64,000 nt of DNA from Candidatus Woesebacteria bacterium RIFCSPLOWO2_01_FULL_39_23 (GCA_001793095.1 MGHG01000012.1:72647-136646); one strand, 5' to 3'; positions 10,594 through 54,785 are shown, counted from the first letter of the stretch. The notes: generated from the sequence alone by a model not told the origin. Translations and numbers: made by a program.

Positions 10594-10709
10594 GCTAGAA
10601 TATAAGAGTGAAAGAGTTGAAGAGTGTAAGTATTAATATTTTTTTAAATTCAAAATTCTAAATTAACTTTTACTCTCACGCTCTCCTGCTCTTTTACTCT
10701 ACTAAAATT

Positions 10710-11336
10710 ATGGATAAAAAGCAAAAACTTGAGGAATTAAGAAATAAAATGAAAAGTGATCAGTCATTACCCCTTCGACAGGGTGCAACAAATCTTGCGT
10801 TTGGTGATGGGGATCCAGAATCAGAATTATTATTTATCGGTGAGGGGCCGGGGTATTGGGAAGATATGAAAGGCATTCCGTTTGTCGGAAATGCCGGAGC
10901 TTTATTAAATCAACTTTTATCTTTAATTGGTATACCGAGAAATAAGATCTATATTACAAACGTGATTCATTATAGAGCCCCCGAAAACCGCGATCCTGAT
11001 CCGTCAGAAATAAATGCCTTTAAGCCGTATTTGGATGGAATAATAAAAATTATTGACCCTAAAGTAATTATAACCCTAGGGCGTTTTTCAATGGCGAAAT
11101 TTTTACCTGGGGTTATGATTAGTAATGTCCATGGAAAACCAAGTATGGTTGATGTAAACGGAAAAGAGATAACTATTGTTCCGATGTATCACCCCGCCGC
11201 GGCTTTAAGAAACGGTGAGGTAAAACTTAAACTGAAAAATGATTTTTTAAAACTTCCTGAAATATTAACATCGACTAACAATGATAAAAAAAATGATAAG
11301 ATTACTAAAAAGGAAGAACAAATGAACTTGATATAA
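10710..11336 (+). CDS. udg: Uracil-DNA glycosylase, family 4
   Basis: GEGPG...PFVGNAG and HPAAAL motifs. Confidence 0.8.
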   Translation: MDKKQKLEELRNKMKSDQSLPLRQGATNLAFGDGDPESELLFIGEGPGYWEDMKGIPFVGNAGALLNQLLSLIGIPRNKIYITNVIHYRAPENRDPDPSEINAFKPYLDGIIKIIDPKVIITLGRFSMAKFLPGVMISNVHGKPSMVDVNGKEITIVPMYHPAAALRNGEVKLKLKNDFLKLPEILTSTNNDKKNDKITKKEEQMNLI

Positions 11337-34054: not shown

Positions 34055-34178
34055 AATATGATTGTCTAAGGTGAACTGCTTCATTAGGAAGCAGTTTATT
34101 GTGTAAAGTATGGGGAATTCGAGAAGAGTTTGATCGGCTTAAGCTCTTCTACTCTTTCACTCTTTTACTCTATTAACT

Positions 34179-36389: not shown

Positions 36390-36490
36390 ACGCTCACTAC
36401 CACGCTAAGCGTGGTTTGTGTTTGGAGAGGCAAGTAGGTTAGATTCTTTTACCCTCTTGCTCTTTCACTCTTATACTCTAAAATATATTT

Positions 36491-38043: not shown

Positions 38044-38349
38044 ATGAGTCGAGAGATTTTAACTGGTAGACCTCTTTATAGGAAGATTATAGAAAATATT
38101 GTTAACGGATCTGATTCTCCAGATATAGATATTGATGCATTTGAATATCACGTTCAACACACATTTAATAGTTTGATGTTTCATATAAGATTTCAACGTC
38201 AGGAGGGTGAAAAACCAAACGAGGAAGATGTAAATTTACTTAAAGGTTTATTGAGTGCTGTTCCGAAGGTGCTTGATTATTTTTCCGAAGATAGGCAAAA
38301 AGACTTAAAGAATTTTCTAATATCAGAAGGCATTATAAAAGATGAATAG
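38044..38349 (+). CDS. Hypothetical protein inserted directly after rpsJ (TAAATG junction)
   Basis: 101-aa ORF, no motif. Confidence 0.4.
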   Translation: MSREILTGRPLYRKIIENIVNGSDSPDIDIDAFEYHVQHTFNSLMFHIRFQRQEGEKPNEEDVNLLKGLLSAVPKVLDYFSEDRQKDLKNFLISEGIIKDE

Positions 38350-38884
38350 ATACGCATCTAGGGCGGGGGAAAAACTTCAATTCGCTTTAGATAAATTCAA
38401 GATATCAGTTAAAGATTTGATGTGTGCCGACTTCGGAAGTTCAACCGGCGGTTTTGTTGATTGTCTTCTCCAAAACGGCGCTAAGAAAGTTTATTCCGTA
38501 GATACTGCTTATGGCGAACTTGCCTGGAACCTTCGCAACGACCCCAGAGTTGTGGTAATAGAACGGACAAACGCCATGCATGTGGTGTTACCCGAAAAAG
38601 TTGATCTAATAACTATAGATGTCGGTTGGACAAAGCAGAAGGATATTTTACCCAATGCCTTCAATAATTTAACAGACGGTGGAACTATTGTGACACTTAT
38701 CAAACCGCATTATGAATTAGGAAGAGGGAAATTAAAGGTAGGACAGGTAGAACAAGTATTGCAGGCAGTACAGGAAGACATTAGAAATGTGGGTGGAAAA
38801 GTTGACAAGCTTGTCGAATCACCGCTTTTAGGTGAAAAAGGCAAAAATCGTGAATTTCTTGCTTTGATAAAACCTGAGACGTGA
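38342..38884 (+). CDS. tlyA: TlyA-like FtsJ-type rRNA 2'-O-methyltransferase without S4 domain
   Basis: SRAGEKLQFALDKF, DFGSSTGGFVDCLL, VYSVDTAYGELAWNLRNDPRVVVIERTNA. Confidence 0.7.
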   Translation: MNRYASRAGEKLQFALDKFKISVKDLMCADFGSSTGGFVDCLLQNGAKKVYSVDTAYGELAWNLRNDPRVVVIERTNAMHVVLPEKVDLITIDVGWTKQKDILPNAFNNLTDGGTIVTLIKPHYELGRGKLKVGQVEQVLQAVQEDIRNVGGKVDKLVESPLLGEKGKNREFLALIKPET

Positions 38885-38906
38885 GTAAATAGCTTTAGAG
38901 GGTTAT

Positions 38907-39173
38907 TTATTTTTTTATAATTCTTCTTCGGAATCCAGTTACTTCTATCGAGCCATCCTTGTAAATGCTATTCGATGGTCTTAAAAACCTCGCTTTAGGG
39001 TAAATTTTTTGAGACAATGTTGGTTCGCGATCCTCATATTTAATTGTGGTTTCGACACCGAAAACTCCAAAGGTCGATAATTTTATAAAAGCATCTAAAC
39101 AACCGCCACGAGTGGACTTTTCATGAGTAGTTTCAGCTGTCATATTTAGTACCCAGTATAATAGAGCAGACAA
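38907..39173 (-). CDS. hypothetical protein (antisense to the operon direction)
   Basis: 88-aa ORF only. Confidence 0.25.
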   Translation of the reverse strand: MSALLYWVLNMTAETTHEKSTRGGCLDAFIKLSTFGVFGVETTIKYEDREPTLSQKIYPKARFLRPSNSIYKDGSIEVTGFRRRIIKK

Positions 39174-39196
39174 TAACCAAAGTCAATTGTTGAAGG

Positions 39197-39225
39197 TTGC
39201 TAAGCTGGCTTTATTTTTGTATAAT
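39197..39225 (+). promoter_or_regulatory. Promoter: -35 TTGCTA, 17-nt spacer, extended -10 TGTATAAT
   Basis: Read directly, ~120 nt upstream of rplC. Confidence 0.5.
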
Positions 39226-39294
39226 TGCTATCCAGTGGAGGTGGGCCGTCATACATAGCCACGATTAGAATTGCTAGAGAGCCGATTTAGTTAG

Positions 39295-39315
39295 GGCGCT
39301 TCTGGCGCCTTTTTT
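39295..39315 (+). terminator. Leader attenuator-like terminator (GGCGC-TTCTG-GCGCC plus T6), 30 nt before rplC
   Basis: GC stem plus U-run read directly. Position is analogous to the L4-controlled S10-operon leader attenuator. Confidence 0.45.
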
Positions 39316-42728: not shown

Positions 42729-43379
42729 ATGGGACAGAAAGTTAATCCAGTAGCATTTAGAACGGGTACTTTTTTACCTTGGAAATCGCGTTGGTATGCC
42801 GACGATAAAACCTATAAAAAATATCTGATTGAGGATATCACTTTGAGACGCGCTTTGATGAATAAGCTTAAGCTAGCCGGTGTTACGAGTATCGAGATTG
42901 AAAGATTACCGAAAAGTATGGTTGTAACAATGACAGTATCCCGTCCGGGTGTGGTAATCGGAAGAGGCGGTTCGGGAATTGAAGAAATCAAAAAATTTAT
43001 TATCGACATGTTAGGAAAAACCAAAACACTTAAGTCCGATAATATGAAAATTGATTTACGCGTAAACGAAGTCAAGGATCCCGAACTTTCATCCTATCTG
43101 GTTGCGACAAGAATTGTGTCAGATTTGGAAAGAAGAATGCCCCATCGTCGTGTAATTGCTAAGACTATAGAGAGAGTTATGCAATCAGGTGCACTGGGTG
43201 TAAAGATAGTTTTGGCGGGGAGAATTGGCGGGGCAGAAATTTCTAGGACTGAAAAGTACCATAAAGGCTCTATTCCATCACAGACTCTAAGAGAAATTAT
43301 AGATTACGCTCAAGTTCCTGCGCTTTTGAAAAGGGGTTATGTTGGTATCAAAGTATATATACACAAGAAATCAGAGTAG
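42729..43379 (+). CDS. rpsC: 30S ribosomal protein S3
   Basis: MGQKVNPVAFRTG...; the ORF-track start 42597 is an upstream overlap artefact. Confidence 0.9.
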   Translation: MGQKVNPVAFRTGTFLPWKSRWYADDKTYKKYLIEDITLRRALMNKLKLAGVTSIEIERLPKSMVVTMTVSRPGVVIGRGGSGIEEIKKFIIDMLGKTKTLKSDNMKIDLRVNEVKDPELSSYLVATRIVSDLERRMPHRRVIAKTIERVMQSGALGVKIVLAGRIGGAEISRTEKYHKGSIPSQTLREIIDYAQVPALLKRGYVGIKVYIHKKSE

Positions 43380-43461
43380 AAATGTGTAAGGGTGTAAGAG
43401 CATGATTTTAAAATACTTATACTCTTAAACTCTTTTACTCTTTCACTCTAAGCAAGGACGT

Positions 43462-43872
43462 ATGTTAGAACCAAAAAGACGCAAATTTAGAAAAGATTTT
43501 AGAGGCCGAAGGAAAGGCCAAGCTTTACGTGGTTATGAGCTTGCCTTTGGTGAATTTGGTTTAAAGGCATTAGAGGTTACGTGGCTTTCTGGGAAGCAAA
43601 TTGAAGCCGGCAGGCGCGCGATAACACATTCTCTAAAACGTGGAGGGAGAGTTTGGATTAGAGTGTTTCCGGATAAGCCGGTTACAAGTAGACCTGCAGG
43701 GCAAAGAATGGGGAGCGGAAAAGGAGATATTGACCGTTACGTTGCTGTGGTCAGACCAGGTAAGATTATTTACGAAGTAGCTGGGGCTACAAAAGATGTG
43801 GTCGTTGCTGCACTTAAGAAAGCAGCGGATAAAATGCCTGTCAAAACAAAGATAATAATGAAGGCGGCCTAA
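43462..43872 (+). CDS. rplP: 50S ribosomal protein L16
   Basis: MLEPKRRKFRK... Confidence 0.95.
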   Translation: MLEPKRRKFRKDFRGRRKGQALRGYELAFGEFGLKALEVTWLSGKQIEAGRRAITHSLKRGGRVWIRVFPDKPVTSRPAGQRMGSGKGDIDRYVAVVRPGKIIYEVAGATKDVVVAALKKAADKMPVKTKIIMKAA

Positions 43873-43878
43873 ATTTTA

Positions 43879-44094
43879 ATGAAAAAGAAAGATTTAACTG
43901 CATTGAGTGAGAAGACGGAATCCGAATTATTGCGTCTTATTGATAAAAGACGATCCGAACTTTATAATTCTTTGGCTCAAATTAAAAGTGGCAATGAAAA
44001 AAATCTGAAAAAATCAAAGAACATAAGACACGAGATTTCTCAGTTATTGACTTTAATTCGACTGAAACAGCTTACTCACAAGGAGGAAAAATGA
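43879..44094 (+). CDS. rpmC: 50S ribosomal protein L29
   Basis: L29 pattern, ATGA overlap with rpsQ. Confidence 0.85.
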   Translation: MKKKDLTALSEKTESELLRLIDKRRSELYNSLAQIKSGNEKNLKKSKNIRHEISQLLTLIRLKQLTHKEEK

Positions 44095-44402
44095 AGATAT
44101 TTACAGGTAAAGTAGTATCAAAAAAAATGGCTAAAACGGCAACAGTATTGCTCAGTCGACCTGTTATCCATAAGCTCTATATGAAAAGATTCGTAAGGGC
44201 AAAAAAATATCATGTCCACGATGAGCTGGGAGCTGAGGTTGGACAGATGGTTAATTTTGTCTCAAGTAAACCTTATAGTAAGTCAAAAAAGTGGAAAATA
44301 GTTAAAATAATCGGAAAAACAACTGCTGAAAAATCCGCAAAGGAGAAAGCAATTAAAGAAAGGGGGAGTACACAGTCTAAATCTGCGAGATCAGATAAGT
44401 AG
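44091..44402 (+). CDS. rpsQ: 30S ribosomal protein S17
   Basis: GKVVSKKMAKTATVLLSR. Confidence 0.9.
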   Translation: MKIFTGKVVSKKMAKTATVLLSRPVIHKLYMKRFVRAKKYHVHDELGAEVGQMVNFVSSKPYSKSKKWKIVKIIGKTTAEKSAKEKAIKERGSTQSKSARSDK

Positions 44403-44420
44403 CCTGTGTAACAAGAGAAT

Positions 44421-44786
44421 GTGATTCAATTAAGAACAATGCTGGTTCCGGCCGATAATTCAGGAGCAAAAAGACTAATGGTTATTGGGATGTCTTCCAA
44501 AATCGGTAAGGTAGCAACTCTTGGAGACGTAATTAATTGCGTCGTCGAGAAAGCTGACCCCAATGGCGCGGTAGCAGATAAAGAGAAAGTTAAAGTGTTG
44601 GTTGTAAGGACCAAAAAAGAGGTGAGAAGGCGTGACGGAACCTATATCCGTTTTGACGATAATGCCGGAGTAGTTATCGATAAGACGGGTTTGCCAAGAG
44701 GTACGCGTATATTAGGTCCGGTAGCTAGGGAAATAAAAGAGAAGGGTTATACGAAGATCAGTTCACTTGCGCGGGAGGTAGTATAA
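44421..44786 (+). CDS. rplN: 50S ribosomal protein L14
   Basis: VADNSGAK. Confidence 0.9.
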
Positions 44787-44788
44787 AT

Positions 44789-45103
44789 ATGCTCAAATTT
44801 AAAGTCGGAGATACAGTAAAAATAACAGCAGGAAAAGATAAGGGTAGAGAAGGAAAGATTGAAAAACTGAGCCCTACTAGTTTTACCGCTATAATACCCG
44901 GAATTAATGAGTATAAGAAACACATAAAAGGGAGAGATGGCCAAAAGGGTGGGATATTTAGTATCCCGAGATCTATGCCTTTTTCTAAAATAGCCATTAT
45001 ATGCCCAAAGTGTAAAAAGGTAACAAGGATAGGTTTTAAATTTGTTGGAGATGAAAAGGTCAGGTTTTGCAGGAAGTGTAAAAAAGAAATATCACCAAAA
45101 TGA
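44789..45103 (+). CDS. rplX: 50S ribosomal protein L24 (KOW) with C-terminal zinc ribbon
   Basis: VGDTVKITAGKDKG plus CPKC...CRKC. Confidence 0.85.
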   Translation: MLKFKVGDTVKITAGKDKGREGKIEKLSPTSFTAIIPGINEYKKHIKGRDGQKGGIFSIPRSMPFSKIAIICPKCKKVTRIGFKFVGDEKVRFCRKCKKEISPK

Positions 45104-45648
45104 ATATTAATTCAAGATTAAAAGATAAATACGAAAACGAGATAATTCCAACACTTGTTGGGGAATTCGATATTAAAAATAGAATGGAAGTTCCGAAAAT
45201 CGTCAAGATTGTTGTAAATAGCGGAACAGGTGATGCTCTTAAAAATAAGGAATTACTGGAAAAAATAAAGACCGATATGGCTCTCATAACCGGTCAAGCG
45301 CCATCAGTTAGGGCGGCCAGAGTTTCCGTGGCCAGTTTCGGTATCCGAGCCGGAATGCCCGTTGGGGTAAAAGTAACTTTACGGGGAGCGAGAATGTATA
45401 GTTTTTTCGATAAGCTAGTCTCAGTAATTCTTCCCCGTTTAAGAGATTTTAGAGGAGTTCCGAGGAAGAGTTTCGATAAACATGGTAATTATACATTAGG
45501 AGTAGTTGAACACAGTGTTTTTCCTGAGATAGATATATCAAAAACTAGTGCAAGAGGCATGGAAATAACGGTAGTTACAAACACGGACGACTCGAAGAAA
45601 GCAGCAAGATTACTCGAACTATTGGGCATGCCGTTTGAAAAATCATAA
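45100..45648 (+). CDS. rplE: 50S ribosomal protein L5
   Basis: L5 similarity, ATGA overlap with rplX. Confidence 0.9.
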   Translation: MNINSRLKDKYENEIIPTLVGEFDIKNRMEVPKIVKIVVNSGTGDALKNKELLEKIKTDMALITGQAPSVRAARVSVASFGIRAGMPVGVKVTLRGARMYSFFDKLVSVILPRLRDFRGVPRKSFDKHGNYTLGVVEHSVFPEIDISKTSARGMEITVVTNTDDSKKAARLLELLGMPFEKS

Positions 45649-45694
45649 TTATTTAATATTGTAATATTCTCTACAAAATTTTGTAGAAATTTTG

Positions 45695-45772
45695 AAAGGA
45701 GTTGTCGACAATTAGCCGAGTGTTACGTTCAAATAGGTAAACGTAACGAAGGCATTGGTCGAACAACGACGT
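45695..45772 (+). repeat. Structured intergenic element, family member 1 (rplE-rpsN): AAAGGAGTTG..TAGCCGAG, hairpin GTTACGTT/AACGTAAC, GAAGGC..ACGACG-ATG
   Basis: Homologous to the elements at 51423, 51689 and 52533. Confidence 0.6.
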
Positions 45773-45958
45773 ATGTCGACTAAAACAAAAGAAGTAAGAG
45801 AAACAAAAAAGCTAAAATATAAGACTAGGTATACAAATAGATGCCGCCTTTGTGGAAGGGCTAGAGGTTATATGAGAAAATATGGACTATGTAGGTTATG
45901 TTTTAGAGAGTATGCAAATAAGGGTGAAATACCGGGTGTAAGAAAAGCGAGTTGGTAA
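45773..45958 (+). CDS. rpsN: 30S ribosomal protein S14 type Z (61 aa, Zn-binding)
   Basis: MSTKTKEV...[23 protein letters not shown]. The ORF-track TTG start at 45755 lies inside the conserved element; ATG 45773 gives the canonical 61-aa length. Confidence 0.85.
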
Positions 45959-46053
45959 AACACTTTTCAAACTTTCTTTAGGAGTGAAAATTAGGCAAAG
46001 AAAGATGAATTTTGAGAGAAAATAATAAAGAGAAAAATAGGGAGATTTAAAAA

Positions 46054-46503
46054 ATGCCAAATAAAACAATCAAAATAGAACAAAAAGAAATGAATAAAGG
46101 ACTCAAACAAGCAAAACGAGTTGGGATGACCAATTATCCGGTTGGAGATTTTCTAATAAGACTCAAAAATACGGCTATGGCGAAGGGCCATAAAGTGACT
46201 GTCCCACGGACGCGTCTTATCGAGGAAACAGCAGAACTTTTGAAAAAAGAAGGTTATATTGCTCAAGTGAAAATAGATGGCAATCTTTTAATTGTCGATC
46301 TTGCCTATGTTAAAAAAGAACCTGTATTGATAACTATAAGGTTAGTCTCTAAACCCGGATTAAGAATTTATAATAGTGCTGTCGAATTGGGAGCAAATAG
46401 GGGTCCTCAAATACTAATTGTGTCTACGTCGAAAGGATTAATGAGTAATCGTACTGCAATTAAGAATAATTTGGGTGGTGAGGTTATAGCTGAAGTACTT
46501 TAA
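46054..46503 (+). CDS. rpsH: 30S ribosomal protein S8 (possible N-terminal extension; an internal Met at residue 25 is an alternative start)
   Basis: GDFLIRLKNTAMAKGHKVTVP... S8 core. Confidence 0.85.
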   Translation: MPNKTIKIEQKEMNKGLKQAKRVGMTNYPVGDFLIRLKNTAMAKGHKVTVPRTRLIEETAELLKKEGYIAQVKIDGNLLIVDLAYVKKEPVLITIRLVSKPGLRIYNSAVELGANRGPQILIVSTSKGLMSNRTAIKNNLGGEVIAEVL

Positions 46504-46507
46504 ATCT

Positions 46508-47056
46508 ATGAGCAGAATTGGAAAAAAACCTATTAAAATCCCGGAGGGGGTTAATGTCACAATCGGGGGAGAAGCGATAAAAGTTAGCGGTCCCTTAGGT
46601 AACTTGGAGAGGCGACTCCCCGGTAAAATCGATGTCAAAACAGAAGACGGTTTTCTCAAAGTATCTTCTAAAGGTGACAGTTCAATGGACCCAATATTCG
46701 GTACAACAAGATCACACGTTCAAAATATGCTGATAGGCGTTTCTACGGGATGGAGTAAGACAATGGAGTTGGTGGGTGTTGGTTATAGGGGTGAATTGGT
46801 AGGTAAGAATTTATCGTTAGCTCTTGGATTTTCGCATCCTGTTATTTTTGAAGCACCCAATGGCATAACTTTTAAAATTGAAAAAAGTCTAATTATAGTT
46901 AGTGGTATTGATAAAGATTTAGTTGGACTTGTTGCCGATAAAATAAGAGCCAAAAAGCCGCCGGAGCCGTATAAGGGAAAAGGAATAAAATATCAAAATG
47001 AGAAAATAAGGAGAAAGGCTGGTAAGGCTGCCAAAGCTCAAGCGGGTGCAGCTTAA
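46508..47056 (+). CDS. rplF: 50S ribosomal protein L6
   Basis: MSRIGKKPIKIPEGV. Confidence 0.95.
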   Translation: MSRIGKKPIKIPEGVNVTIGGEAIKVSGPLGNLERRLPGKIDVKTEDGFLKVSSKGDSSMDPIFGTTRSHVQNMLIGVSTGWSKTMELVGVGYRGELVGKNLSLALGFSHPVIFEAPNGITFKIEKSLIIVSGIDKDLVGLVADKIRAKKPPEPYKGKGIKYQNEKIRRKAGKAAKAQAGAA

Positions 47057-47065
47057 GAAGAAATT

Positions 47066-47422
47066 ATGGTAAAAAATCGTAAAGAAAACTGTATTAAAAA
47101 AGCAAGAAGGGTTAGGGCTAAGATATTGACTCTCAAAACTTATCCCCGACTTAGTGTCTATCGGTCAAATAAACATATTTATGCACAGGTGATAGATGAT
47201 AAAAAAGGGATAACTCTAGCTGCGTCAAGTGATCTGACGAAAGAATTGTCAAAAACCAAAACGTCTAAGACGGAAAGGGCAAGTTCGGTTGGAGAGTCAC
47301 TCGCAAAAATCGCCGTGAAAAAAAAGGTGTCCAAAGTTGTTTTTGATAAAGGTGGTTACAAATACGGGGGTAGAGTGAGAGCATTAGCCGATGGGGCAAG
47401 AAAGGGAGGGTTAAAATTTTAA
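47066..47422 (+). CDS. rplR: 50S ribosomal protein L18
   Basis: [18 protein letters not shown]. Confidence 0.9.
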
Positions 47423-47423
47423 T

Positions 47424-47897
47424 ATGAATATGTACGAACAAAAGAAGGAATACGAAGAAACGGTTATAGAGATTAAAAGAGTCTCGAAAAAGACACGGGG
47501 AGGTAATACTGTGAGATTTACTGCTTTAGTTGTAGTCGGGGATAGAAAAGGGAAAGTTGGAGTTGGGTTGTCTCGAGCCTCAGATGTTACAGGGGCAATT
47601 TATAAGGCAATTGAAGCAGCCAAAAGAAAAATGATTCTAGTTCCGATGCGCGGACAAACAATCCCCTATTCCGTTACCGAGAAATTCTCAGCAGCCAGGG
47701 TTTTAATTAAACCTGCTCCCCCGGGATCCGGAATAATTGCAGGCGGACCAATCAGAGTAGTTCTTGAGGCGGCCGGTATTAGAAATGCGGTCGGGAAAAT
47801 TTTAGGAACCAACAATAAAGCCCCGAATGTTTATGCAACTTTGAATGCACTGCAAACCGTAGCAAAATATAGTGATAGGAAGATATTGAGAAAATAA
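47424..47897 (+). CDS. rpsE: 30S ribosomal protein S5
   Basis: IKRVSKKTRGGNTVRFTALVVVGD. Confidence 0.95.
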   Translation: MNMYEQKKEYEETVIEIKRVSKKTRGGNTVRFTALVVVGDRKGKVGVGLSRASDVTGAIYKAIEAAKRKMILVPMRGQTIPYSVTEKFSAARVLIKPAPPGSGIIAGGPIRVVLEAAGIRNAVGKILGTNNKAPNVYATLNALQTVAKYSDRKILRK

Positions 47898-47898
47898 C

Positions 47899-48375
47899 AT
47901 GGAAATGAAATTACCTAAGGTTATCGATAAAAGAAAAAAGAGGTTGGGACGTGGTTATGGAAGTGGCAAGGGTGGTCACACTTCAAGTCGTGGACAGAAA
48001 GGTCAGAAATCACGGGGAAAGGTTGGAGTAATTTTTGAAGGATATAAAGTTAAGAAATCTCTAATCAAAAGATTACCTCTAAGACGCGGAAAGGATAAAT
48101 TTAAAGCTAAAGCAAAAGCTATTATAGTTGATATTAACCTTCTTAATATTTTCAAGGATGGATCTATCGTTGATTTGGATAGTTTGATTGAAAAGAAATT
48201 GGTTAACCCGGAAGATGCAAAAACATTCGGTGTTAAAGTATTGGGTAATGGAAAATTGGAAAAGAAGTTGACAATCAGTCTTCCGATTTCCAAATCAGGA
48301 GCTTTGCAAGTCGAAAAGTTGGGAGGAAAAGTTATTGTTTCAGCGAGGAGCTCAAAGCTTAAAACTCAAAGTTGA
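47899..48375 (+). CDS. rplO: 50S ribosomal protein L15 (no rpmD/L30 gene between rpsE and rplO)
   Basis: RLGRGYGSGKGGHTSSRGQKGQKSR. Confidence 0.9.
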   Translation: MEMKLPKVIDKRKKRLGRGYGSGKGGHTSSRGQKGQKSRGKVGVIFEGYKVKKSLIKRLPLRRGKDKFKAKAKAIIVDINLLNIFKDGSIVDLDSLIEKKLVNPEDAKTFGVKVLGNGKLEKKLTISLPISKSGALQVEKLGGKVIVSARSSKLKTQS

Positions 48376-48429
48376 AGAGTTTTTATTTTTTAGTTTTGAG
48401 TTATTAGTTGTAAGTTTTGAGTTAAAATC

Positions 48430-49710
48430 ATGTTCTCTTCAATATTACAATTTTTTTCGAGAGCCTATAAATCTAAAGATATTAGGCGAAAACTTTTAAT
48501 TACAGCGGCAATTTTGGTTGTATACCGGCTATTAGCACATATTCCTGCATCAGGTGTCGACAGGAGCTCTCTTCAGGCTCTTTTTACATCTAGCCCGCTC
48601 TTATCTCTCTTAGATGTTTTTTCCGGAGGAACACTTGCAAACTTTTCCATTTTAGCTTTGGGTTTAACGCCTTACATCAATGCGTCTATTATTATGCAGC
48701 TTCTGACGTACGTAATTCCGAGCTTTGAGGAGCTTTCGAAAGAGGGAGAGTACGGCCAGGAGAGGATAAATCAGTATACGAGATTTTTGACTGTTCCACT
48801 TTCAATTATGCAAGCATTCGGTATGTTTATGCTTCTGAAAAATCAGGGTATTATTCCTGCAATCGCACCAAATATGCTTATTGCACTAATTTTAACAATG
48901 AGTGCGGGAGCTATGATTGCAGTTTGGTTGGGTGAACTAATAACAGAGTATGGGTTGGGTAATGGTGTATCCTTTTTGATTTTCGCCGGAATTGTAGCCA
49001 GACTGCCAGTGACTTTAGGTCAATCAGTCTCAGTTGTTCAAACTGCCGATTTATTAAAAATTGCGATATTTATAGTACTATCTATTGTTATTGTCGGTTT
49101 AATAGTTTTTATGAATGAAGCGACAAGGCAAATTCCGATAAGTTATGCCAGGCGTGCTGGCAAAAGTGCGATTGGTTCATCTTACCTGCCTCTTAGATTG
49201 AATCAAGCAGGAGTTATCCCGATTATTTTTGCAGTTTCACTCGTTCTCCTTCCGTCGTTGATCGGGCAATTCCTCTCGGGTGTGCAAAACGCTCGTGTTG
49301 CTGAGTTTGCCTCAAGAATAACAAGCTCTTTTAATCCGCAGTCTTTTATCTATAATTTAGTTTATTTTCTTTTAGTATTTGGATTCACATATTTTTATAC
49401 TTCAGTTGTCTTTAACCCGGAGAAAATTTCGGAAAGTTTACAGAAAAACGGTGGTTTTATTCCGGGAATAAGACCGGGTACTAATACCACAGACTATCTA
49501 TCAAGGGTTCTGAACAGAATTACGCTCGTTGGTGCAACTTTCTTGGGATTAGTTGCAATTTTGCCGTCATTTTTTCAGAGTTTTATAGGAGTTTCCAATC
49601 TGGCAATAGGGGGAACCGGTATTTTGATTGTTGTGTCGGTTGTTTTGGAAATTACCCGTGACCTTGAAGCACAGCTCGTTATGAAAAGATATGAAACATA
49701 TCTTAGGTAA
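48430..49710 (+). CDS. secY: Preprotein translocase subunit SecY
   Basis: 10-TM SecY pattern. Confidence 0.95.
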   Translation: MFSSILQFFSRAYKSKDIRRKLLITAAILVVYRLLAHIPASGVDRSSLQALFTSSPLLSLLDVFSGGTLANFSILALGLTPYINASIIMQLLTYVIPSFEELSKEGEYGQERINQYTRFLTVPLSIMQAFGMFMLLKNQGIIPAIAPNMLIALILTMSAGAMIAVWLGELITEYGLGNGVSFLIFAGIVARLPVTLGQSVSVVQTADLLKIAIFIVLSIVIVGLIVFMNEATRQIPISYARRAGKSAIGSSYLPLRLNQAGVIPIIFAVSLVLLPSLIGQFLSGVQNARVAEFASRITSSFNPQSFIYNLVYFLLVFGFTYFYTSVVFNPEKISESLQKNGGFIPGIRPGTNTTDYLSRVLNRITLVGATFLGLVAILPSFFQSFIGVSNLAIGGTGILIVVSVVLEITRDLEAQLVMKRYETYLR

Positions 49711-49715
49711 TAATT

Positions 49716-50360
49716 ATGAATATTGTAATCTTGGGAGCACCAGGGTCGGGTAAGGGAACTCAATCTGAGCTTCTTGCAAATAAATTGAACCTGTTTTATT
49801 TCCAGACTGGTGAGTTGGCAAGAGAGCTTGCAAAAAAAGATAAAAGAATTAGAGAGATTGTAGATTCCGGTAGGCTGATTCCAAAAGAGGAGATGACAAT
49901 GTACGCATTAGATAATCTAAAGGAAAGCAAATCCAATTATAAAGACATTCTTTTTGAAGGGTTTCCAAGGTTTATTTCTCAATATGAAGCACTTGAGAAA
50001 TTTTTACTGTTAAAGGGTGATGATATAGATGCGGTTATTTCATTAGACATAAGCCAGGAAGGAGCAGTAAGAAGATTATCCTCGAGAAGAGTGTGTGAAG
50101 AATGTGGTGAGGTTTATAACCTACTTACAAATCCACCGAAGGAGCCAGACAAATGTGATAAATGCGGAGGTAGACTGTTCCATCGAGAAGATGATAAGCC
50201 AGAATCAATACGAGTTAGGTTTATTGATTTTCAGGAGAATACAAAGAAACTTATAGATTATTTGGAAAAACAAGGAAAATTGATAAGAGTTAATGCGGAA
50301 AGGCCGATCGACGAGATTTTTCAGGAAATTTTACAGAAGTTGGGGATTAATAATGAATAA
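49716..50360 (+). CDS. adk: Adenylate kinase (Zn-binding lid)
   Basis: ILGAPGSGKGTQ; CEECG...CDKCG. Confidence 0.9.
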   Translation: MNIVILGAPGSGKGTQSELLANKLNLFYFQTGELARELAKKDKRIREIVDSGRLIPKEEMTMYALDNLKESKSNYKDILFEGFPRFISQYEALEKFLLLKGDDIDAVISLDISQEGAVRRLSSRRVCEECGEVYNLLTNPPKEPDKCDKCGGRLFHREDDKPESIRVRFIDFQENTKKLIDYLEKQGKLIRVNAERPIDEIFQEILQKLGINNE

Positions 50361-51111
50361 GAAAAATATATTAACTAAATCAGAAAAAGAAATTGCAATA
50401 ATGATTGAGGGAGGTAGAAAGCTTGCTGAGGTAAAAAAAAGGTTGGCTGAATCCGTCGAGATCGGTGGAAACGCGAAGAATATCGAGGATGTAGCAACTG
50501 ATCTTATAGAAAAAAACGGTGGAAAGCCGTCCTTCAGGATGGTTCCAAATTATAGTTGGGCTACATGCGTTAATATAAATGAGGGAGTTGTCCACGGGAT
50601 TCCAAGACCGGAGATAGTTTTCAAAAAGGGGGATGTTGTTAGTGTTGACGTGGGATTATTTTATAAAGGATTTCATACAGACACGTCTTTTACGGTTGGG
50701 TTGGGTGTTAGTGCTGAGATGGAAAAATTTTTAGAAACTGGTAAAAAAGCTCTCAGCATGGCAATATCAGCGACAAAGGCGGGAGGGCGAATTTATGATA
50801 TCTCACAAGCCATCGAGACAACGCTTGTTTCCCAAGGTTATCATGCGGTATCGGCTTTAATCGGACACGGTGTAGGAAGAGAATTACATGAGGAACCGCA
50901 AATACCCGGTTTTACTCAGGGAGAGAGGGGCGATAGTCCAATAATTCCGATAGGTGCAACATTGGCAATTGAGGTAATTTATACGATGGGCAGTCCAAAT
51001 ATCATGGTGGGAAGAGACGGATGGACAATTTATATGCGTGATGGTAAAATATCAGCACTTTACGAAGATACTGTAGCGGTAACAAAAGAAGGTACGATTT
51101 TATTAACGTAG
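50353..51111 (+). CDS. map: Methionine aminopeptidase type I
   Basis: Pita-bread fold motifs. Start at the MNKKNIL ATG overlaps the adk stop. Confidence 0.85.
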   Translation: MNKKNILTKSEKEIAIMIEGGRKLAEVKKRLAESVEIGGNAKNIEDVATDLIEKNGGKPSFRMVPNYSWATCVNINEGVVHGIPRPEIVFKKGDVVSVDVGLFYKGFHTDTSFTVGLGVSAEMEKFLETGKKALSMAISATKAGGRIYDISQAIETTLVSQGYHAVSALIGHGVGRELHEEPQIPGFTQGERGDSPIIPIGATLAIEVIYTMGSPNIMVGRDGWTIYMRDGKISALYEDTVAVTKEGTILLT

Positions 51112-51157
51112 TTGAGAAACCAGGTTTGAAATCTCCTGGTTTTTATTTTGTTGAGAT

Positions 51158-51376
51158 ATGACAAATGCAGGCGATAAAACTTTTGTAAACGGAAAGGTTA
51201 TGCAGGCATTGCCGAATACAATGTTTAGCGTTGAATTGGATGATGGCAGAAGTATTTTGACGACATTAACCGGAAAAATGAGAAGGAATTATATCAGAAT
51301 TTTTCCAGGAGATAGAGTAAAAGTAGAAATGACAAAATATGATACGGATAGAGGAAGAATAGTATTTAAGTTTTAA
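51158..51376 (+). CDS. infA: Translation initiation factor IF-1
   Basis: GKV.QALPNTMF.VEL.DG...GKMRRNYIRI.PGD.V.VE.T.YD...GRIVF. Confidence 0.95.
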   Translation: MTNAGDKTFVNGKVMQALPNTMFSVELDDGRSILTTLTGKMRRNYIRIFPGDRVKVEMTKYDTDRGRIVFKF

Positions 51377-51422
51377 AATTAAATTATTAAATTAATTACA
51401 ATCCTGAGTTTACCGAAGGATT

Positions 51423-51501
51423 GAGAGGAGTTGCTGGTGATAGCTGAAAGTCACGTTTGTGTAAACCAAATGTGACGAAAGCGAAAGCCAAGCAAGGACG
51501 T
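51423..51501 (+). repeat. Structured intergenic element, member 2 (infA-rpmJ): GAGAGGAGTTGCTGGTGATAGCTGAAAG, hairpin GTCACGTTTG/CAAATGTGAC, GAAAGCGAAAGCCAAGCAAGGACGT-ATG
   Basis: Aligned by eye to the other three members. Confidence 0.6.
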
Positions 51502-51615
51502 ATGAAAGTTGGTTCATCAGTAAAAAAAAGATGCAGGGATTGCAAAATAGTCAGACGCCGAGGGGTTATCTATGTTATATGTAAAAACCCCCGACACAAA
51601 CAGCGTCAGGGATAA
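51502..51615 (+). CDS. rpmJ: 50S ribosomal protein L36 (37 aa; below the ORF-track cutoff)
   Basis: [37 protein letters not shown], with the CxxC...CxxxxH Zn-ribbon. Confidence 0.9.
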
Positions 51616-51688
51616 CCTTATTCTGACTTTCTTTAAAAAAGAAAGTCAGGCAAAGAAGAAGTAAATAACTAATTTGCGAAGCAAATTT

Positions 51689-51759
51689 GGGAGGAGTTGG
51701 CGACTGAAAGCTGAAATCCCGATTTTAATCGGGAGAAAGCATAAGTCGAACAAGGACGA
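51689..51759 (+). repeat. Structured intergenic element, member 3 (rpmJ-rpsM): GGGAGGAGTTGGCGACTGAAAGCTGAAA, hairpin TCCCGA/TCGGGA, GAAAGCATAAGTCGAACAAGGACGA-ATG
   Basis: Preceded by a perfect 12-bp stem CTGACTTTCTTT/AAAGAAAGTCAG at 51626-51653. Confidence 0.6.
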
Positions 51760-52167
51760 ATGGCACGAATCGCTGGAATAGAATTACAAGATAAAGACAG
51801 AGTTGTCTATGCTCTAACTAAAATTAAGGGTATAGGTATGTCGTTGTCAAAAAAGATTCTTAGCGCATTAAAAATAGATGAAACCCTGAGAGTTAAGGAT
51901 CTCAGGGGTGAGGATCAGGCTAAGATTACAGCAACAATAGAAACATACCTGACCGAAGGAGACTTAATCCGACAGGTCAGGTCAAACATTGCTAGACTCC
52001 AAAGAACAGGATCTTATAGGGGGGTCAGGCATTCGAGAAATTTACCGTCGCGAGGACAAAGAACAAGACATAATGCCAGAACTAAAAGAGGTAAAAGAAA
52101 GACAGTGGGAGCGTTTAAAAAAGAAGCTTTAGCAAAAGTCCAAACAGTGAAAACTGAAACCAAATAA
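51760..52167 (+). CDS. rpsM: 30S ribosomal protein S13
   Basis: MARIAGIELQ... Confidence 0.95.
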   Translation: MARIAGIELQDKDRVVYALTKIKGIGMSLSKKILSALKIDETLRVKDLRGEDQAKITATIETYLTEGDLIRQVRSNIARLQRTGSYRGVRHSRNLPSRGQRTRHNARTKRGKRKTVGAFKKEALAKVQTVKTETK

Positions 52168-52169
52168 TC

Positions 52170-52535
52170 ATGGCAAAAACGAAAGAGATCACAACAGGTA
52201 AAATATATATTTCGGCGAGTTTCAATAATACCCTTGTTACAATAACGGATAATAAGGGTGATGTCATCGGATGGAGTTCTTCCGGGAACTCTGGTTTTAA
52301 AGGAACCAGAAAATCGACTCCTTATGCAGCTACGACAGCTGTTGATAAGATAGTAAAAAAAGTAAAAGAAGATTACGGCTTAAGAGAGGTTGAGATATAT
52401 GTTAAAGGCCCCGGCTCTGGGCGCGATGCGGCACTTCGTGCAATTAGAGCGGCTGATCTTAAAATTTCAATGATTGCTGACGTGACGCCGATTCCGCATA
52501 ACGGACCGAGGCCGAAGAAAAAAAGGAGAGCATAG
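52170..52535 (+). CDS. rpsK: 30S ribosomal protein S11
   Basis: S11 similarity. Confidence 0.95.
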   Translation: MAKTKEITTGKIYISASFNNTLVTITDNKGDVIGWSSSGNSGFKGTRKSTPYAATTAVDKIVKKVKEDYGLREVEIYVKGPGSGRDAALRAIRAADLKISMIADVTPIPHNGPRPKKKRRA

Positions 52536-52610
52536 AGGAGTTAACGGCGATAGCTGTAAGTTACGTTCAGTTTCATGAACGTAACGGAAGCGTAAGCTTA
52601 TTAATGACGA
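52533..52610 (+). repeat. Structured intergenic element, member 4 (rpsK-rpsD): TAGAGGAGTTAACGGCGATAGCTGTAAG, hairpin GTTACGTTCA/TGAACGTAAC, GGAAGCGTAAGC..ATGACGA-ATG
   Basis: Starts on the rpsK stop codon; 10-bp perfect stem. Confidence 0.6.
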
Positions 52611-53207
52611 ATGAGATATACAGGACCAAAAGATAGATTATCGAGAAGAGAGGGATTTGACCTTTTTGGTAAGGGAGCAAAACTTACCAGATTGAGCGTT
52701 CCCCCGGGTGTGCATGGCCCGAGAGGTTCAAGAAATAAGTCTCAATATGGTAGACAGCTTCGGGAAAAGCAGAAGGTAAAAAGGTTATATGGTTTAATGG
52801 AAAGACAATTCAGAAAGTATGCAGATATTGCACTTAAGACAAAAGGTAATACGGGAGAAAAATTAATAGCTCTTCTTGAAAGAAGATTGGATAATGTTGT
52901 TTTTAGACTTGGTTTTGCTCCTACCCGTCCATCGGCAAGGCAGGTTGTAGCACATCGCCATGTTCTGGTTAATTCTAAGAAAGTAAATATACCTTCATAT
53001 CAGGTTCGAAGTGGTGATATAATATCGCTCACGCCCAAGGGATCTGAGATTCCTGCAGTGAAAAAAATGCTGACAAATAAGGATGTAAATATGCCGACAT
53101 GGCTTAAGAGAAAGGCAATTATTGGCCAGGTAGTACGTGACCCTAAAAGGGAAGATATAGTAGAACCAATTAGCGAACAAGATATCGTAGAGTTTTACTC
53201 CAGATAG
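52611..53207 (+). CDS. rpsD: 30S ribosomal protein S4
   Basis: MRYTGPKDRLSRREG... Confidence 0.95.
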   Translation: MRYTGPKDRLSRREGFDLFGKGAKLTRLSVPPGVHGPRGSRNKSQYGRQLREKQKVKRLYGLMERQFRKYADIALKTKGNTGEKLIALLERRLDNVVFRLGFAPTRPSARQVVAHRHVLVNSKKVNIPSYQVRSGDIISLTPKGSEIPAVKKMLTNKDVNMPTWLKRKAIIGQVVRDPKREDIVEPISEQDIVEFYSR

Positions 53208-53316
53208 TTCTGGAGCTAAGCTTTGCTATTTCTAAATAGGTGGAGGCTTGCCGCTCCGTAGCCAAACTAAAGGGGAAACCCTACTCCGCTAAAGCTACGG
53301 AAGGGTTCGCCATTAT

Positions 53317-54270
53317 TTGTTAATTTTTAAAGCGGAGGCGAAGGGCGGTGAAAGAAAATTGAACGAACCAATTTTTGAAACACAAGAAGAGCAACAAAAA
53401 GGAAATTATGGACGATTTGTTATAAGTCCTTTACAAGAAGGATTTGGTAATACTTTGGGTAATTCTTTAAGACGAGTCTTATTAATGTCTTTACCTGGCG
53501 CTGCAATTACCTCCGTCAAAATAGGCGGAGTTAAGCATCAGTTTTCTACTCTCAAGGGCATGAAAGAGGACATTGTTGAATTTGTTTTAAATCTCAAAAA
53601 GGTAAGAGTAAATTATGTCGGAGACAAGCCTGCCAGAGCAAGTCTTACGATTAAAGGACCGAAAGAGGTAAAAGCAGGAGATATTGAAACAGACGCAAAT
53701 GTCACAATTGCTAATCCCGATTTGGTTTTGGCCAACCTCAATAAAGACGCAAATATTTCTGCCAAGATGGACGTCGAAATGGGGTCAGGTTATTCACCGG
53801 CTGAGGATAGAAAAACAGGTGAGATTGGTGTAATTCCACTCGATGCATCTTTTTCTCCGGTAATAAGAGTAAATTATAAAATTGAAGAGACGCGTGTCGG
53901 AAGGTTTACAAATTACGATAAACTTATACTGGAAATTTGGACGGATGGTACAATTTCTCCGAAAGAAGCACTGCTTTCGGCGGCAAAGACACTAGTCACA
54001 TATTACAACCAATTGGTAAATCCAAAAAAGGTTGAGAAAAAAGAAATAACAGATGGCAATGAACTCGGACTTGTCGGAAAACTTTCTGTTGAAGAGATCA
54101 ACTTACCAACAAGAGTTGCCAATGCTTTGGTTAAAGCAGGTTATGATACTGTTGAAGATTTAGTAAAAACCAAAAGATCGGAACTCGTTAAGGTGAGAAA
54201 TCTCGGAGAAAAATCAGTCAAGATTGTTGAAGCAGCACTTGGAGAAAAAGGATTACAGTTGACAGATTAA
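53317..54270 (+). CDS. rpoA: DNA-directed RNA polymerase subunit alpha (start uncertain: TTG at 53317 or in-frame TTG at 53359)
   Basis: GRFVISPLQEGFGNTLGNSLRRVLL; C-terminal domain present. Confidence 0.85.
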   Translation: MLIFKAEAKGGERKLNEPIFETQEEQQKGNYGRFVISPLQEGFGNTLGNSLRRVLLMSLPGAAITSVKIGGVKHQFSTLKGMKEDIVEFVLNLKKVRVNYVGDKPARASLTIKGPKEVKAGDIETDANVTIANPDLVLANLNKDANISAKMDVEMGSGYSPAEDRKTGEIGVIPLDASFSPVIRVNYKIEETRVGRFTNYDKLILEIWTDGTISPKEALLSAAKTLVTYYNQLVNPKKVEKKEITDGNELGLVGKLSVEEINLPTRVANALVKAGYDTVEDLVKTKRSELVKVRNLGEKSVKIVEAALGEKGLQLTD

Positions 54271-54281
54271 TAATTTTCCGT

Positions 54282-54785
54282 ATGAGAAAAAGAGTATTTG
54301 GAAGAAATCTTGGTAGATCTTATACTGCGAAAAAAGCTCTGACTAGGTCTTTAGTTAAAGCTATTGTTGGCAGTGGTGATATTGTAACAACAAAGGCTAA
54401 AGCGAAGTTTTTCTTACCCGAGCTGGAAAGAATGATTAACTTGGCAGGAAAGGGTGGTGTGGCGGAGCGAAGAGCAATTTATGCAAAATTAGCTAATGAT
54501 AGAGATACGACAGATCGATTATTTGAGATTGCTAAAACCCTGAAAGCTGTCAGGGGTGGGTATTTTAAGGTTGTAAATTTACCAAGCCGTCGTGGAGATA
54601 GGGCCAGTACAGTCAAAATCAGTTGGAGTCAAAAGTTTGAAAAAACTGAAAAATCTAAAAAGGCGGCGTCTAAATCCGGCAAAAAAAGTGAAACAAAGGA
54701 AACAAAAGATAAAAGCACAAGCGCTAAAAGTTTGAAAGGCAGATTAGCTAAATTAAGGAAGAGAACTGCGAAATCTAAAAAATAA
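54282..54785 (+). CDS. rplQ: 50S ribosomal protein L17 with Lys-rich tail
   Basis: L17 core plus KS-rich extension. Confidence 0.9.
   Translation: MRKRVFGRNLGRSYTAKKALTRSLVKAIVGSGDIVTTKAKAKFFLPELERMINLAGKGGVAERRAIYAKLANDRDTTDRLFEIAKTLKAVRGGYFKVVNLPSRRGDRASTVKISWSQKFEKTEKSKKAASKSGKKSETKETKDKSTSAKSLKGRLAKLRKRTAKSKK

Follow-up and report, generated by a model that had tools for sequence, protein, structure and literature searches.

Structured leaders with a rod between AGGAG and the start codon of ribosomal-protein genes in Woesebacteria, with a possible role as split ribosome-binding sites

Results

Four homologous elements in one ribosomal-protein cluster

We analyzed a 64 kb stretch of DNA (hereafter the window) from Candidatus Woesebacteria bacterium RIFCSPLOWO2_01_FULL_39_23, which belongs to the Microgenomates within the Candidate Phyla Radiation (CPR, or Patescibacteria), and describe here a repeated, structured leader found in its S10-spc-alpha ribosomal-protein cluster. 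L5, S14, S8, IF-1, L36, S13, S11, S4, RpoA and L17 were confirmed in this region by Pfam, and S13 is 100% identical to the protein recorded for this bacterium. Four homologous elements, each directly 5′ of one start codon, lie on the + strand before rpsN (E1, 45697-45775), rpmJ (E2, 51426-51504), rpsM (E3, 51692-51762) and rpsD (E4, 52536-52613), the coordinates running from an AGGAG motif to the ATG. The short genes rpsN and rpmJ, which follow E1 and E2, are omitted from the public gene calls for the same genome (locus L090, 3889-4295 and 9617-10001).

The E1–E4 alignment has a mean column identity of 75%. A covariance model (R1) built from the four copies scored them between 72.9 and 91.8 bits (E1, 90.5; E2, 91.8; E3, 72.9; E4, 90.3), and no fifth copy was found in the 64 kb on either strand, the next best match reaching 14.4 bits. 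Each copy folds alone into the same rod, with z-scores against shuffled sequences of −3.0 to −4.8 (E1, −3.2; E2, −4.8; E3, −3.0; E4, −3.9). When AGGAG and the 3′ tail with its ATG were stripped, sequence-only leave-one-out profiles recovered E2 and E4 (E about 1.5e-4) and missed E1 and E3, which are tied to the family via the common fold and the covariance model. Because E2 and E4 were recovered without these parts, the similarity exceeds a Shine-Dalgarno (SD) sequence plus start context. E1–E4 are a real, structurally conserved repeat serving different cistrons.

These results agree with a preliminary description of the same stretch, made from the sequence alone, in placing four homologous elements in these spacers, and its caution that a shared SD and start context might account for the whole resemblance is answered in part, through E2 and E4. 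Its boundaries needed correction. It had let every copy begin at the upstream stop codon, which holds for E4; E1, E2 and E3 start 48, 49 and 76 nucleotides (nt) after the stops of rplE, infA and rpmJ. The ending AAGGACG that it gave to all four is present in E2 and E3 and is replaced by AACGACG in E1 and AATGACG in E4, all four sharing GACG(A/T)ATG. The motif GACGWATG occurs five times in the window, at the starts of the four genes served by E1–E4 and at rplP.

Anatomy of the element

From 5′ to 3′, the element comprises a hairpin (P0), a purine linker, AGGAG, a rod of four helices (P1–P4), a 6-nt tail and the AUG, and the leader measures about 75–115 nt overall. A conserved UUACA stands before P0, a hairpin with a stem of 7–9 bp. 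E1, E2, E3 and all the metagenome copies introduced below carry this hairpin, which ends 2 nt 5′ of AGGAG in E1, E2 and E3. E4 has no P0, because the sequence 5′ of it codes for rpsK, whose stop codon adjoins AGGAG. The 2-nt linker and AGGAG together form a 7-nt purine-only single strand (RR-AGGAG).

The rod is irregular and 57–65 nt long, with about 20–24 paired positions interrupted by two purine-rich internal loops (IL1 and IL2). P1 consists of UUG/CAA-type pairs and begins right after AGGAG, and P2 contains 3–5 bp. IL1 is A-rich, with 4–5 nt facing 3–4 nt, and varies in sequence and length; P3 is GCU/AGC in most copies and GCC/GGC in E1; IL2 reads 5′-GNAR / 5′-GRA. P4 is a hairpin of 5–10 bp, variable in stem sequence and loop, and the tail is exactly 6 nt ending GACG(A/U). 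The single 6–10-bp hairpin of the preliminary description corresponds to P4, so the fold as then drawn does not stand. As then delimited, the element lacked P0 of E1–E3, which carries the unit further 5′, as well as the complete rod, and the placement of AGGAG and AUG on either side of the rod base went unnoticed.

The rod is predicted as a single structure (−18 to −29 kcal/mol) leaving 0 unpaired nt on the AGGAG side and 6 on the AUG side. In every copy P1 abuts AGGAG and stands exactly 6 nt from AUG, and the linear distance from AGGAG to ATG is 63–72 nt in all copies; in the modeled fold, AGGAG and AUG thus flank the rod base on its two sides. Among E1–E4, bases were gained or lost in IL1 and P4 and never at the AGGAG–P1 or P1–AUG junctions, and the longest invariant blocks are AGGAGUU and GACG.AUG. 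Ensemble prediction left AGGAG, between P0 and P1, mostly unpaired in 8 of 11 copies, partly open in E1 and in the copy of locus L084, and fully paired in that of L089.

In E1, P0 occupies 45674-45694 (+; CAAAAUUU, a UGUAG loop and AAAUUUUG). The SD-like AGGAG (45697-45701, +) stands against the rod base, with positions 1, 3 and 4 open in the ensemble (0.89–0.96) and positions 2 and 5 largely paired (0.30 and 0.05). The 65-nt rod P1–P4 (45702-45766, +) is assigned by fold z-score, covariance score and pair counts, and the tail CGACGU with the rpsN start codon (45767-45775, +) by sequence and Pfam. The P0 of E2 (51399-51423, +; CAAUCCU / AGGAUUG) has a stem unlike the other copies yet still pairs; it is followed on the same strand by AGGAG (51426-51430), the rod (51431-51495), the tail GGACGU (51496-51501) and the rpmJ ATG (51502-51504). 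E3 carries a P0 (51669-51689, +; CUAAUUUGC GAA GCAAAUUUG) nearly identical to that of the metagenome copies, then AGGAG (51692-51696), a rod of 57 nt (51697-51753), the tail GGACGA (51754-51759) and the rpsM ATG (51760-51762), all +. E4, likewise on the + strand, runs from the rpsK stop codon TAG (52533-52535) through AGGAG (52536-52540), a 64-nt rod (52541-52604) and the tail UGACGA (52605-52610) to the rpsD ATG (52611-52613).

Compensatory changes in the rod and P0

We then compared base pairing across copies. In the rod alignment (11 sequences) 94.4% of cells pair, versus 30–46% when the partners are slid, and both-sided changes occur in 12 of 19 pairs. On four of five measures the observed values were reached by none of 500 shuffles, and on the fifth, further pair types, by 5 of 500. 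P0 (10 sequences) behaves similarly: 96.7% of cells pair versus 7–50% in slid controls, both-sided changes occur in 4 of 9 pairs, and the observed values were reached by 0/500 shuffles on four of five measures and by 1/500 on further pair types. Because the sample is small and the rod alignment came from a fit to the covariance model, these pair statistics are supportive, not definitive. They bear out the covariation that the preliminary description expected of the hairpin, and extend it to the rod and to P0.

Pairwise identity among the window paralogs is 61–70%, lower than among copies from different genomes, and the differences are compensatory changes, which indicates selection on the fold. 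The few G-U pairs occur on the + strand only and become A-C mismatches on the opposite strand, which points to folding at the RNA level, with the mRNA strand as the folded molecule. Whereas the adjoining helices covary, IL2 (GNAR/GRA) and P3 are conserved in sequence from copy to copy, which suggests an added, putative protein-binding role.

Conserved internal loops inside a covarying rod would also suit a riboswitch, in which the loops form the binding pocket for a small molecule or ion and control ribosomal-protein synthesis. We hold this to be very unlikely: ensemble folding with the flanks revealed no rival pairing by which AGGAG or AUG would be concealed in most copies, IL1 varies in length as well as in sequence, and the element occurs in few lineages and matches no known riboswitch.

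Copies in related genomes

A scan of JGI metagenomes with a pattern that fixed AGGAGTT, GCYG, GRARGC, a 14-nt 3′ strand/spacing and GACGWATG returned 9 loci with 7 distinct further copies (61–85 bits), all in related Woesebacteria, so that the family does not end with the four copies of the preliminary description. The genes 3′ of the distinct metagenome copies are rplP (n = 3), rpsM (n = 3) and rpsN (n = 1). Each of the 13 copies is placed precisely between a stop codon and the start ATG of a ribosomal-protein gene, and the genes served encode S14, L36, S13, S4 or L16 with canonical N-termini. Within the DNA at hand, each genome of a metagenome locus holds one copy in its cluster versus four in the window genome, and P0 was found in the fetched loci only together with the rod.

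We also used S13 to collect 80 loci of GTDB species representatives (about 55 from CPR; best S13 identity 70%) and, from ENA, JGI, NCBI and Logan assemblies, 14 loci of the relatives nearest by S13. Searches with R1 and with a second model, R2, found no copy in the 80 GTDB loci or the 14 nearest-S13 loci, which include about 75 related CPR loci, and the orthologous spacers in these element-free relatives hold other hairpins. No copy was found away from ribosomal-protein starts, either in element-bearing DNA (about 119 kb, made up of the window and 55 kb of other loci) or in related DNA (about 1.2 Mb). Viral contigs, scanned once with a pattern for the full cassette and once with a rod-only pattern, gave no match; in a contig index, the window L36 protein had no record and an S13 look-up returned the same genome only. 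The family is thus patchy and confined to a subset of Woesebacteria.

Copies from different genomes and before different genes are 85–93% identical from P0 to ATG; the DNA of the adjoining coding regions is 59–74% identical, and third codon positions 35–55%. Between-copy similarity does not track the gene served. Such high cross-genome identity may reflect an unusually strong constraint on primary sequence in most lineages or, alternatively, may reflect recent spread of the cassette between genes and lineages.

The second of these possibilities recalls a selfish foldback repeat of the kind of a miniature inverted-repeat transposable element (MITE), inserted in ribosome-binding sites and tolerated since it folds away, which the preliminary description had offered as one explanation. 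Absence from the related CPR loci, nearest relatives included, agrees with it, as do the different genes served in different genomes, the excess of element identity over that of adjoining coding DNA, the AGGA on both rod sides in some copies, and the rod-less leaders with hairpin, SD and AUG found in relatives (described below). However, the conserved unit extends from P0 through ATG, beyond the rod, and has no terminal inverted repeats at its ends; 13 of 13 copies occupy one precise context; the rest of the window, the other element-bearing loci (55 kb) and the two viral-contig scans yielded nothing further; and the compensatory divergence of the window paralogs indicates selection on the fold. 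The known REP/BIME, ERIC and Correia families are short, co-transcribed palindromic repeats of patchy distribution, scattered over many unrelated intergenic sites. The present elements resemble them as short, repeated, patchy palindromic units more conserved in sequence than the neighboring genes, but keep to one exact functional context and have a conserved unit that takes in SD and ATG. A selfish origin is thus disfavored, and we regard it as improbable.

Comparison with described RNAs

With gathering thresholds, Rfam 15 matched nothing in the 64 kb, and a search of 45000-53500 at E ≤ 10 gave nothing overlapping any element, in agreement with the preliminary description, which had recognized no described RNA family. 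Its statement that this is not a classical gene-specific autoregulatory leader also holds, with four copies in one cluster and relatives' copies before rplP, rpsM or rpsN. The elements are undescribed, lineage-restricted structured leaders. The ribosomal-protein leader survey of Eckert and Weinberg in 2020 lists no CPR leader (PMC7247131), and our literature search on ribosomal leaders and SD use in CPR/Patescibacteria found no relevant papers.

Several identities were considered and set aside. By eye, against the consensus rules, the internal loops do not form a K-turn, as their GA dinucleotides are in the wrong register; K-loop-like GA/GA occurs only in P4 of the metagenome-type copies and is not a family feature; and a sarcin-ricin (loop E) reading was likewise rejected as a family feature. 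In a comparison with the universal 16S 1492R region, the 3′ strand of E3 (51742-51755, AAGUCG-AACAAGG) matched at 13 of 14 positions, a value that about 0.15% of random window 75-mers equal; the match is absent from the other copies and was therefore treated as chance. The 8-mer UAAUAGCU, shared with the L11-binding region of 23S rRNA, is probably also a chance match. A GGAAGC...GCCAAG arrangement like that of signal recognition particle RNA had no Rfam support. Finally, a promoter/terminator consensus scan of 43000-54500 gave 31 promoter-like sites versus 28 expected, with nothing consistently placed at the elements.

Other leaders and features near the elements

The rplP leader (43450-43464, +) has the same closing 15 nt as E2 (AAGCAAGGACGUAUG), but carries ACUCUUNN (ACUCUU) repeats at the rod position; it may be a remnant or mosaic of the cassette. 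Relatives carry the full rod cassette at rplP, and leaders in the operon therefore look mosaic or exchangeable. The ACUCUUNN octamer defines a second leader type, in which 3–4 tandem copies stand immediately 5′ of start codons that have no SD. Such leaders occur in the window at 34143-34172 (fusA), 36459-36480 (tuf), 43421-43450 (rplP) and 10604-10700 (a gene starting at 10710), and in relatives before rpsM (L002 9925-10000 and L094 9925-10000). The motif has 11 matches in the window versus 0.64 expected by chance, and some of the repeats form a long hairpin together with complementary AAGAGUNN repeats.

A third recurrent module is a hairpin ACUUUCUU...AAGAAAGU followed by (G/A)CAAAGAA, found at 51623-51662 in the window and in relatives at L082 49-71, L083 4212-4234, L088 64-84, L089 1510-1532 and L023 3613-3633. 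Depending on the genome, it is placed after rpmJ, before rpsH or before rpsD, mostly in rod-bearing genomes.

Elsewhere in the cluster, rpsJ and rplC are separated by two non-ribosomal open reading frames (ORFs; 101 and 180 aa) at 38044-39313. In the roughly 120 nt that follow them, a TATAAT-like box, a GC-rich hairpin and a U-run stand just 5′ of rplC; this stretch is a candidate leader of the attenuator type. Rfam gives no match to it, and it folds no better than shuffles. The rpsD–rpoA spacer (53208-53316) is 109 nt long and GC-rich (−38 kcal/mol, z only −1.65), and the apparent start codon of rpoA is TTG. No L30 gene is present between rpsE and rplO (47424-48375), and its absence is expected for CPR bacteria.

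Discussion

Translation of the four window genes is probably started or controlled in one shared, unusual manner. Tentatively, and with a little less than even confidence, we interpret the element as a portable translation-initiation leader for ribosomal-protein cistrons, in which the rod makes a split ribosome-binding site (RBS) and the loops may bind a shared regulator. Of the three functional guesses in the preliminary description, the anatomy is best matched by the translation (re-)initiation cassette, whose mechanism is a model, and a processing or stabilizer module is a further possibility. In this model AGGAG would be the SD, and the folded rod would loop out about 60 nt, bringing the SD to 6 unpaired nt from AUG; if loop-out sets the SD–AUG distance in this way, initiation at rod-bearing cistrons would depend on the folded rod. 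P0 and P1, on either side of the SD, would keep it single-stranded. A trans-acting factor, of which a ribosomal protein is the most plausible kind, might dock on the purine-rich internal loops; bound at the rod base, it could block or trap the 30S subunit and so place several cistrons under common control.

The sequence next to the start codon fits the model, with the reservation that SD use in this genome is patchy. E2 and E3 have AAGGA at 3 nt from AUG, too close by the usual spacing rules, and E1 and E4 have neither such an SD nor the GGA of the tail. Two retrieved loci hold rod-less leaders, L084 478-575 in the infA–rpmJ spacer and L086 4060-4200 in the rplE–rpsN spacer, which consist of a hairpin, an SD (GGGGAG or AAGGA), 6–7 nt and AUG; the hairpin of the L084 rod-less leader resembles P0. 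Given these rod-less leaders in relatives, the rod resembles a piece inserted into an otherwise standard design.

Outside the family, SD-anchored segments with a single hairpin leaving ≤11 unpaired nt numbered 11 of 283, compared with a mean of 2.4 in shuffles and 1.4% at random offsets. The layout of SD, one hairpin, ≤11 nt and AUG is thus modestly enriched outside the family, which lends weak support to its generality. One of these segments is the secY leader of the window (48345-48429), with a rod-like layout but an unrelated sequence: GAGGAG is followed by a 71-nt hairpin (z = −4.1), 8 nt and AUG. The 5′ arm of this hairpin contains the rplO stop codon (48373-48375).

The closest precedent is found in genes 38 and 25 of phage T4, where a hairpin cuts the SD–AUG spacing from 22 to 5 nt and from 27 to 11 nt, respectively, and enhances initiation (PMC3014915). 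As there, an SD-like sequence lies linearly too far from AUG with a stable structure in between, and the 6 unpaired nt of our elements compare with 5 and 11 in T4. The Woesebacteria elements differ from the short T4 hairpin in having an insert of 57–65 nt with four helices and conserved internal loops, in serving four genes of cellular CPR ribosomal-protein operons, in carrying an extra 5′ hairpin and in being known from a predicted fold. In function, the nearest analogy to the element is plausibly a T4-type split RBS joined to a ribosomal-protein leader.

Several points weigh against a split RBS. SD use is patchy in this genome and many ribosomal-protein genes in the window have no SD, so AGGAG need not be the initiating SD. 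A rod of 57–65 nt is several times longer than the T4 hairpins and beyond any known split RBS, which puts its accommodation on the 30S platform in question. The constant junctions could stem from recent common ancestry rather than constraint; moreover, the metagenome scan itself fixed the conserved blocks, and the evidence for their conservation and for the junction lengths therefore comes from the four window paralogs alone. Finally, a mere spacer gives the internal loops no cause for conservation, so a second function must be assumed, with a partner that is putative.

The conserved loops lead to a different reading, in which the element is a common operator or stabilizer leader without a split-RBS role: the rod, with or without P0, would bind a ribosomal or other RNA-binding protein for feedback repression, and AGGAG would be a standby site or a 30S dock of the STAB-SD type that together with P0 shields processed mRNA from 5′-3′ decay, initiation being SD-independent. 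Purine-rich internal loops and a P3 that keep their sequence between covarying helices suit such a leader, as does the position of every copy 5′ of a ribosomal-protein gene. Autoregulatory leaders, such as the S8/spc, S4/alpha and L4/S10 sites of Escherichia coli and the r-leaders of Eckert and Weinberg (PMC7247131), are likewise covarying structures directly 5′ of ribosomal-protein genes, in which irregular helices go together with purine-rich loops that suit protein binding. They are, however, gene- or operon-specific and usually occur once per operon, unlike an element with four copies in one cluster that serves different genes in different genomes and has neither an Rfam match nor an identified rRNA mimicry or ligand.

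The stabilizer side of this alternative draws on the STAB-SD, which binds the 30S subunit and blocks RNase J1 (PMC4113751). As in such Gram-positive 5′ stem-loop stabilizers (PMC4113751), an SD-like sequence lies far 5′ of the start beside a 5′ hairpin and could hold 30S and protect the mRNA; STAB-SD sequences, by contrast, have neither a fixed geometry to the start codon nor a conserved rod in between. The order of P0 and an SD-like sequence resembles known 5′ stabilizers, many window genes have SD-free starts, RNase Y genes are present in related loci, and the conserved UUACA before P0 could be where a cleavage falls or a transcript begins. Three points speak against an operator or stabilizer: no rRNA mimicry emerged, the single resemblance (E3 to the 16S 1492R region) being confined to that copy; S14, L36, S13, S4 and L16 have no known common regulator; and the fixed positions of AGGAG and AUG at the rod base are left unexplained. 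We judge this alternative unlikely, though deserving of serious attention.

The shape of the rod further suggests a signal for RNase III, the double-strand-specific nuclease, which would cut the S10-spc-alpha transcript into segments and leave a 3′ hairpin on the upstream one. Early mRNA of phage T7 carries intercistronic RNase III signals of the R1.1 type, repeated irregular stem-loops of about 60 nt with internal loops on one long transcript, and the rod resembles these in size and shape. Its 20–24 paired positions broken by internal loops, about two turns of double-stranded RNA, are compatible with RNase III, although not specific to it, and the element is repeated between cistrons. The T7 signals, however, have no conserved 5′ SD and no start codon 6 nt from the 3′ side; here a cut inside the rod would sever the invariant AGGAG from its AUG. 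Nor does cleavage demand an exact 6-nt tail, P0 or limitation to ribosomal-protein starts, and other long spacers in the operon lack the element. We consider an RNase III signal doubtful.

Returning to the split RBS, it can be framed more boldly: a portable cassette would move between ribosomal-protein cistrons and lineages, its folded, roughly 60-nt rod looping out to leave SD and start codon on either side, making it by far the largest natural split RBS and the first in essential cellular genes, and the rod would also be a shared operator through which one trans-acting factor coordinates ribosomal proteins of both subunits. This extended form is speculative, and we think it unlikely to hold in full.

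The control of ribosomal-protein synthesis in CPR/Patescibacteria is essentially unstudied, and the leader searches that we found in the literature report none for this group. The patchy distribution of the family and its conservation above that of the flanking genes raise the question of a non-coding leader that spreads between genes and lineages. If the split-RBS interpretation is correct, the element would be a natural, self-contained and context-insulated ribosome-binding cassette of interest to synthetic biology. Bacterial ribosomes would then initiate across a large folded insert, and in these Woesebacteria one RNA module would coordinate several ribosomal-protein cistrons.

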